A program made the translations under genes and the position numbers. Of a stretch of DNA of 12,111 nucleotides, positions 3,135 to 3,210 are shown piece by piece (positions within the stretch are counted from its first letter, which is position 1; each line of letters opens with the position of its first letter). The stretch comes from a virus, in UHGV virus genome UHGV-0179104; one strand, given 5' to 3'. The notes under the pieces were generated by a model. The model saw only the letters and a list, made by a program, of their open reading frames with translations. It was not told the origin of the DNA and ran no database searches.

Positions 3135-3170
3135 TGTCAAGTTTCCCCAAAGTTATTCAAAAAGTCAATA
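3135..3170 (-). promoter_or_regulatory. Late promoter pR' with qut-like region (Q-utilisation site)
   Basis: Minus strand downstream of the Q stop reads ...ATTGACTTTTTGAATAACTTTGGGGAAACTTGACACC. The -35 TTGACT and the following spacer resemble lambda pR' as I recall it (ATTGACTTATTGAATAAAATTGGGTAAATT); the -10 is GAAACT here versus TAAATT in lambda. Confidence 0.45.
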
Positions 3171-3210
3171 TTATGCCGTTAATATGTTGCCATCCGTGGC
3201 AATCATGGCG

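Follow-up and report, generated by a model that had tools for sequence, protein, structure and literature searches.

Mosaic exchange at module boundaries is a well-established feature of the lambdoid phages. In phage lambda, the Q-binding element (QBE) is placed between the -35 and -10 hexamers of the promoter pR' (PMC4914094). The site recognized by the lambda Q protein is a 13-bp, asymmetric sequence with contacts at both ends, where the helix-turn-helix body of the protein meets positions 1-4 and its zinc-ribbon arm meets positions 11-13, and a -35-like element receives the repositioned sigma region 4 (PMC9388147). The sequence AACGAT occupies +1..+6 in the lambda numbering, and a fully consensus pause hexamer gives stronger pausing with Q action retained (PMC4005639). 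A consensus pause element was also used to build the Q-loading complex that was examined by cryo-EM (PMC9388147), and lambda sequence from +17 onward is known to be replaceable (PMC4005639).

The locus described here lies in a 12,111-nt stretch of the viral genome UHGV-0179104, hereafter called the window. Its Q gene (3211..3834, minus strand) was assigned by protein alignment and by a Pfam search, in which the 207-aa product matched PF03589, the Q-lambda family, with E=4e-58; the cassette is thus not a member of the Q82 family found in phages 82 and 434. The product is the same as lambda Q at 202 of 207 residues (98%), with the substitutions A51V, L135Q, R138I, V140A, and V205I. It also keeps C118, C121, C144, and C147, as expected for a family characterized by a Cys4 zinc-ribbon arm and a helix-turn-helix body. 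The gene is preceded by ninI, in the same order as in lambda, and ends with a TAG stop codon (3213..3211, minus strand). Elsewhere in the nin region, a plus-strand ORF of 590 aa (6170-7942) is situated in the opposite orientation between ninE/ninB and the HNH endonuclease gene/ninG. Its counterpart in the near-identical prophage of Escherichia coli 13E0767 bears no annotation beyond hypothetical protein (WP_000612803.1).

Comparison of the adjoining region with lambda makes it likely that the locus is a complete and cognate lambda-family cassette for Q-dependent antitermination, present as a divergent natural allele that we term D-type. On the minus strand, the Q stop codon is followed in order by TTGACT, a 17-nt spacer, GAAACT, TTGACA, CC, AATAAT, and GGG. 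The first of these is the pR' -35 hexamer (3163..3168), which is the same as that of lambda and agrees with the consensus at 5/6 positions. The spacer (3146..3162; TTTTGAATAACTTTGGG, against TATTGAATAAAATTGGG in lambda) carries the putative QBE, an assignment made by alignment and by conservation among natural alleles. Its blocks TTGAATAA and TGGG are identical to those of lambda, and the distance from the QBE to the -35-like element is equal in the two phages. The positions contacted by Q would correspond to the TTGA... and ...TGG/GGG blocks.

Next to the spacer, the pR' -10 hexamer (3140..3145) reads GAAACT, whereas lambda has TAAATT. These sequences differ at two of six positions, with A-11 and T-7 kept, and agreement with the consensus falls from 4/6 in lambda to 3/6, which bears out an altered -10 reported by a first-pass annotation of this DNA. 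A promoter scan calls lambda pR' but not that of the window, because GAAACT falls below its threshold. The remaining elements are closer to consensus than their lambda counterparts. The -35-like element TTGACA (3135..3140), the predicted dock for repositioned sigma region 4, has 6/6 consensus positions versus 5/6 for TTGACT in lambda, and the predicted sigma-dependent pause element, the -10-like hexamer AATAAT (3127..3132), agrees with TATAAT at 5/6 positions versus 3/6 for lambda AACGAT. A discriminator-like GGG (3124..3126) supplies the final lambda-homologous bases. Between the -35-like and -10-like elements there are 2 nt in the window and 1 nt in lambda; the 2-nt gap is also found in four loci of another class that are otherwise lambda-like (TTGACATCAACGAT; class B, below).

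Transcription likely starts at or adjoining A3132. We considered whether AATAAT might instead serve as the -10 of another promoter, but on reading the sequence found no acceptable -35 or TG motif at the proper spacing. A run of six T residues (3112-3121, minus strand, about +12..+17) replaces the TTCG of lambda where the lambda pause site (+16/+17) would fall, and this run could shift the position of the pause or cause slippage.

The extent of lambda homology was established by multiple alignment with lambda, HK446, and 2B8 and by global pairwise alignment. The segment from the Q stop codon through the -35 matches lambda at 45/48 positions, as the first-pass annotation had recognized. That annotation went on to place a recombination junction inside pR'/qut, between the -35 and the -10, with lambda similarity ending there. 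Divergence does rise beyond the -35, with mismatches at 9/39 positions of the qut core (23%) compared with 3/48 in the upstream intergenic segment (6%; Fisher p=0.03), and it also exceeds the synonymous-site difference (pS) of 0.099 in Q (binomial P=0.012). Homology, however, is not lost. Gapped alignment of 3162..3124 with lambda -29..+9 gives 30/39 identities, eight substitutions, and one 1-nt insertion, so that the relationship continues past the pause element to +9 and the proposed position of the junction does not hold. Pairwise comparison therefore leaves the -10 and pause region diverged from lambda but still recognizably homologous to it. The point 3136, at which a megablast alignment covering Q comes to a halt, is a seed artefact.

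The limit of lambda homology lies instead at 3124/3123, about +9/+10, and hence outside the interval 3135-3210. Ungapped identity to lambda on the 3' side of +9 is 12/60, a random value, and an Rfam search of the leader produced no match and revealed no lambda 6S RNA/tR'. The lambda leader that carries these features (+10..+194) is thus not present, in agreement with the earlier remark that lambda 6S RNA could not be recognized downstream, and neither tRNAs nor known RNAs were found in the leader. Judged from these alignments, the mosaic junction is real and joins a lambda-type Q module to a non-lambda late region. Because the lambda elements all reside 5' of the boundary at +9/+10, the exchange appears to have swapped the cargo and not the switch.

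Natural variation among lambda-type Q loci is informative about the parts of this switch. An exact 23-mer scan of IMG/VR with sequence from the interval between the Q stop codon and the -35 recovered 120 loci, and the combination of IMG/VR and annotated loci yielded 122 qut regions representing 39 distinct alleles. The -35 hexamer, the spacer blocks TTGAATAA and TGGG, and the -10 residues A-11, A-10, A-9, and T-7 never vary among the 39 alleles. Most of the variation is at spacer positions 2-3 and 11-13, and it is exactly these hypervariable positions that the AA to CT change in the spacer of the window affects.

Four classes of downstream sequence accompany lambda-type Q: the lambda leader, the GGATAAATGCAC class (B), the GGCAGATTTATAT class, and the D-type of the window. 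Among the 122 loci, all four classes break mutual homology at +8/+9, which suggests that Q and qut are inherited together as one cassette. Each class breaks at most one or two bases from where the pause element ends (AANNATGG). When a 240-nt class B sequence was used as a query, HK140, mEp235, HK106, and Sf101 matched throughout, and P22 and epsilon34 matched over the first 151 nt, which extends well beyond the break. Within the D-type, GAAACT is present in 22 of the 23 loci examined, the window included. One IMG/VR locus (L081) has the D-type spacer, pause region, and linker but carries the lambda hexamer TAAATT, and this intermediate allele implies that GAAACT arose within the D-type lineage by two point changes. 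Another D-type locus from IMG/VR (L100) has a frameshifted Q gene and a slightly altered linker (GGGTG, T5), and resembles a decaying copy of the cassette.

Substitutions in the Q protein were compared with these changes in its site. R138I, which is located in the arm, does not follow GAAACT, because L081 combines R138I with TAAATT and phage 2B8 combines R138 with GAAACT. V140A and V205I are common to D-type Q proteins; as candidates for compensation linked to qut they are indistinguishable from linkage because both are lineage-wide. Among the sequences compared, we find no evidence for compensatory co-evolution of D-type Q with its qut beyond linkage.

The sequence that follows the cassette has two parts. 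A 31-nt linker (3093..3123, minus strand), which opens with the T6 run, is found only with the D-type allele and matches neither lambda nor 434. A sensitive blastn search of 50,697 phage records with 3123..3093 recovered the linker only from 2B8, with all other hits at E>=1, and wherever it is present in complete E. coli genomes the full junction is present too. No donor of the linker was identified in the phage records or E. coli genomes searched. Homology to phage 434 begins at the next segment (3071..3092, minus strand), a decayed remnant of the promoter-proximal terminator of 434 (AACCTGCCGCCGAGTAGTTTTT, compared with AACCCGCTGCCGAGTGGGTTTTTTTT in 434), and from about 3092 to 1700 the window is 98.8% identical to the 434 late leader. 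Relative to the corresponding 434 sequence (locus L004, 2979-3007), one stem pair has changed from C-G to U-A on both sides, and a deleted G together with a loop-side change leaves a 4-bp stem. The 434 terminator folds with -13.7 kcal/mol and a z-score of -2.5, compared with a z-score of +0.2 for the remnant.

Three ORFs on the minus strand separate pR' from the first terminator. These are the first gene of the 434-type leader, for a 247-aa membrane protein (2216..2958), which is split; a gene for a 52-aa DUF3927/TciB-like protein (1972..2130), which was recognized by annotation and domain comparison; and a small ORF (1915..1721). Relative to 13E0767, 434, and 2B8, the membrane protein gene has lost 1 nt of a T7 run (2465-2470), which splits it into ORFs 2973..2455 and 2458..2216, and it is either a frameshift pseudogene or the product of a homopolymer sequencing error.

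The first credible intrinsic terminator (1759..1785, minus strand) consists of a hairpin at 1785..1767 and a U8 tract, with an 8-bp stem that includes seven GC pairs, a loop of 3, and a folding energy of -14 to -16 kcal/mol. It is located about 1.35 kb from the pR' start and is an annotated terminator in 434. A second intrinsic terminator (1383..1413, hairpin 1413..1391, minus strand) has an 8-bp stem (GCCATCAG/CTGGTGGC) and a U-run, and its 434 homolog is likewise annotated as a terminator. It lies directly upstream of the holin gene, the first of the lysis genes (638..1350, minus strand), which were identified by domain search and encode a phage-21-type holin (1350..1135) and a lysozyme (1135..638). 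A gene for a SASA/DUF6645 esterase is present between the leader terminator and the holin gene in 2B8, 434, and Sp17 of E. coli O157:H7, and in 2B8 the holin gene is preceded by an IS element as well (2B8 locus L001, 6229-8206, corresponding to window positions 1400-1760). The window and 13E0767 are without the esterase gene, which leaves only about 370 nt between their two terminators.

Within the first 1.35 kb after pR', a scan in 60-nt windows combined with fold z-scores revealed no credible proximal terminator. The built-in terminator scan misses lambda tR', whereas the purpose-written 60-nt-window scan recovers it as a control, and tR' has a z-score of -6.35 in the same fold test. Two sequences were weighed as replacements for a proximal terminator and rejected. 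One is the 434 remnant, given its z-score; the other is a 49-nt hairpin with a U7 tract (3067..3012), which does no better than shuffled sequences (z-score -0.8) and has a U-run that is paired in the minimum-free-energy fold.

Taken as a working cassette, the locus would operate by the lambda mechanism, as follows. Sigma-70 RNA polymerase would start at pR', using TTGACT and GAAACT separated by 17 nt, and sigma region 2 would bind again at the near-consensus AATAAT just after the start, causing the polymerase to pause. Q, bound to the spacer through TTGAATAA...TGGG, would move sigma region 4 onto TTGACA and load onto the polymerase, which would then read through the terminators at 1785..1767 and 1413..1391 and reach the genes for holin, lysozyme, and structural and morphogenesis proteins. 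Promoter activity, pausing, Q loading, and readthrough are all predictions of this model; for Q-dependent pause escape and readthrough, the one indirect indication is that phage 2B8, with the identical qut, is viable. The main doubt is the strength of the promoter, given its 3/6 match at the -10 and its absence from the promoter scan calls. Three further features count against a working cassette: the lack of a promoter-proximal terminator, unlike in lambda and 434; an element spacing of 2 nt that is seen in few other natural alleles; and the four residues at which the Q of 2B8 departs from that of the window.

It was originally suggested that a junction between the -35 and the -10 had joined lambda Q to a foreign -10 and pause region that are not its own, such that Q may fail to act there. 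The two changed -10 positions, the excess divergence of the qut core, and the megablast endpoint at 3136 could all be read in this manner. We nevertheless consider such an arrangement highly improbable, because the gapped alignment runs through to 3124 and because the qut elements are all present in the order and spacing of lambda. Furthermore, the L081 locus has the same allele with the lambda -10, no qut from any other Q family matches, and the promoter region of 434 does not align. The related concern that Q and qut might be mismatched also appears unlikely to be warranted, since every qut element is kept, viable phages have their break at the same point, and 2B8 has an identical qut. A separate proposal holds that the switch is decaying, with pR' crippled by the T-12 to G change and the proximal terminator lost, such that late control is weak or non-functional and the allele persists mainly in defective prophages. 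Consistent with this are the subthreshold -10 with its 3/6 match, the presence of the O157:H7 cassette in degraded Sp17, and the frameshifts in the first leader gene of the window and in the Q gene of L100. Decay is nonetheless improbable, because 2B8 forms plaques with the same qut and the 13E0767 prophage has apparently intact genes for replication, lysis, and terminase. The promoter has also kept A-11, T-7, a 5/6 -35, and its 17-nt spacing, and GAAACT recurs at all but one of the D-type loci examined.

A history with two breakpoints is compatible with a working cassette and is somewhat less doubtful than decay, although we still regard it as unlikely. According to this scenario, the qut core was acquired from a more distantly related member of the lambda family in an older exchange near the -35 or the spacer. 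The contrast between 23% divergence in the qut core and the lower values in Q and the upstream intergenic segment would be explained in this way, as would the lineage-specific V140A and V205I of D-type Q. The statistics are weak for a segment of 39 nt, however, and no donor was found that combines a more diverged Q with a D-type qut. Moreover, the differences are equally explicable as selected tuning of promoter and pause strength, and the Q substitutions are scattered along the gene without an abrupt step.

The loss of the proximal terminator, together with the altered balance between promoter and pause strength, does permit a speculative reading in which leader genes are expressed independently of Q. 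With this terminator gone, about 1.3 kb of "moron" genes for membrane proteins would be transcribed from pR' in the lysogen without Q. The braking role of tR' would fall to a long sigma-dependent pause, leaving Q necessary only at the distal terminators ahead of lysis. This rewiring of the late switch is a minority possibility that we advance only tentatively. We continue to favor a matched cassette of the lambda kind.

The D-type junction is widely distributed. Of 5,426 complete E. coli genomes, 557 carry its 201-bp sequence at 99% identity or more, and the identity is 100% in all of the top matches listed. Many of the 557 carriers are O157:H7 strains that have the cassette in the defective prophage Sp17, and therefore the prevalence is partly clonal and is no proof of function. 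The window as a whole has its closest genome match in a prophage of the cattle isolate E. coli 13E0767, to which it is 99.7% identical, and the replication, lysis, and terminase genes near this region are annotated there without pseudogene flags. A study of temperate coliphages from the infant gut lists phage 2B8 by name; its phages were isolated through their plaques, and those that were sequenced were plaque-purified and amplified (PMC6969025).

If Q is matched to its loading site, as we infer, the late genes of this prophage should be controlled as they are in lambda. The exchangeable cargo starts, in four lineages or more, no further than a base or two from the final nucleotide required by Q (+8/+9), and this boundary rule follows from the mechanism of Q. 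The D-type allele is frequent in E. coli, with Sp17 of O157:H7 and the effector-carrying phage 2B8 among its carriers, and the strengths of its promoter and pause could therefore affect both induction and the expression of downstream accessory genes. The searches made uncovered no functional characterization of the D-type allele. The junction in the window is an instance of known lambdoid mosaicism and nothing about it challenges current understanding; it is mildly unusual only in lacking a proximal terminator and in the shifted balance between promoter and pause strength.

Among described systems, lambda has the element order, the 17-nt spacer length, and the Pfam family of Q in common with the window. 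The window differs from lambda by its weaker -10 and its stronger pause hexamer and -35-like element, and also by the position of the first strong terminator, which is about 1.35 kb from the start in the window whereas tR' lies about 0.19 kb from the start in lambda (PMC4914094). The leaders of P22, HK140, and mEp235 resemble the window in having lambda-type Q and qut and in losing lambda homology at +8/+9. Beyond the break they have another sequence (GGATAAATGCAC...), and in the qut core they are far closer to lambda than the window is.

Phage 2B8 (NC_049952) has a pR'/qut and leader identical to those of the window (0 differences in 241 nt). Its Q differs from that of the window at four residues (51, 131, 136, and 138), having A131S and W136L and lacking A51V and R138I. 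The degraded prophage Sp17 of O157:H7 Sakai carries the same pR'/qut and leader, and both Sp17 and 2B8 have the same membrane-protein and DUF3927 genes downstream as does the window.

Phage 434 (OL657226) shares the leader of the window, including the membrane protein, TciB, the small ORF, and the terminator at 1785..1767, but places these genes under a Q82-type Q (PF06323) with its own promoter (TTGCAA-17-TATACT) and an intact proximal terminator. The promoter region of 434 does not align with window positions 3210..3093. In 434, ninI is directly followed by a fragment encoding the 29 N-terminal residues of a lambda-type Q (L004, 603-692), and then by an lpxR-like gene, ylcG, and the Q82-type Q. 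This fragment is a footprint of Q-cassette replacement at the same locus. The window joins a D-type cassette to a late leader that is otherwise served, in 434, by a cassette of the Q82 type.
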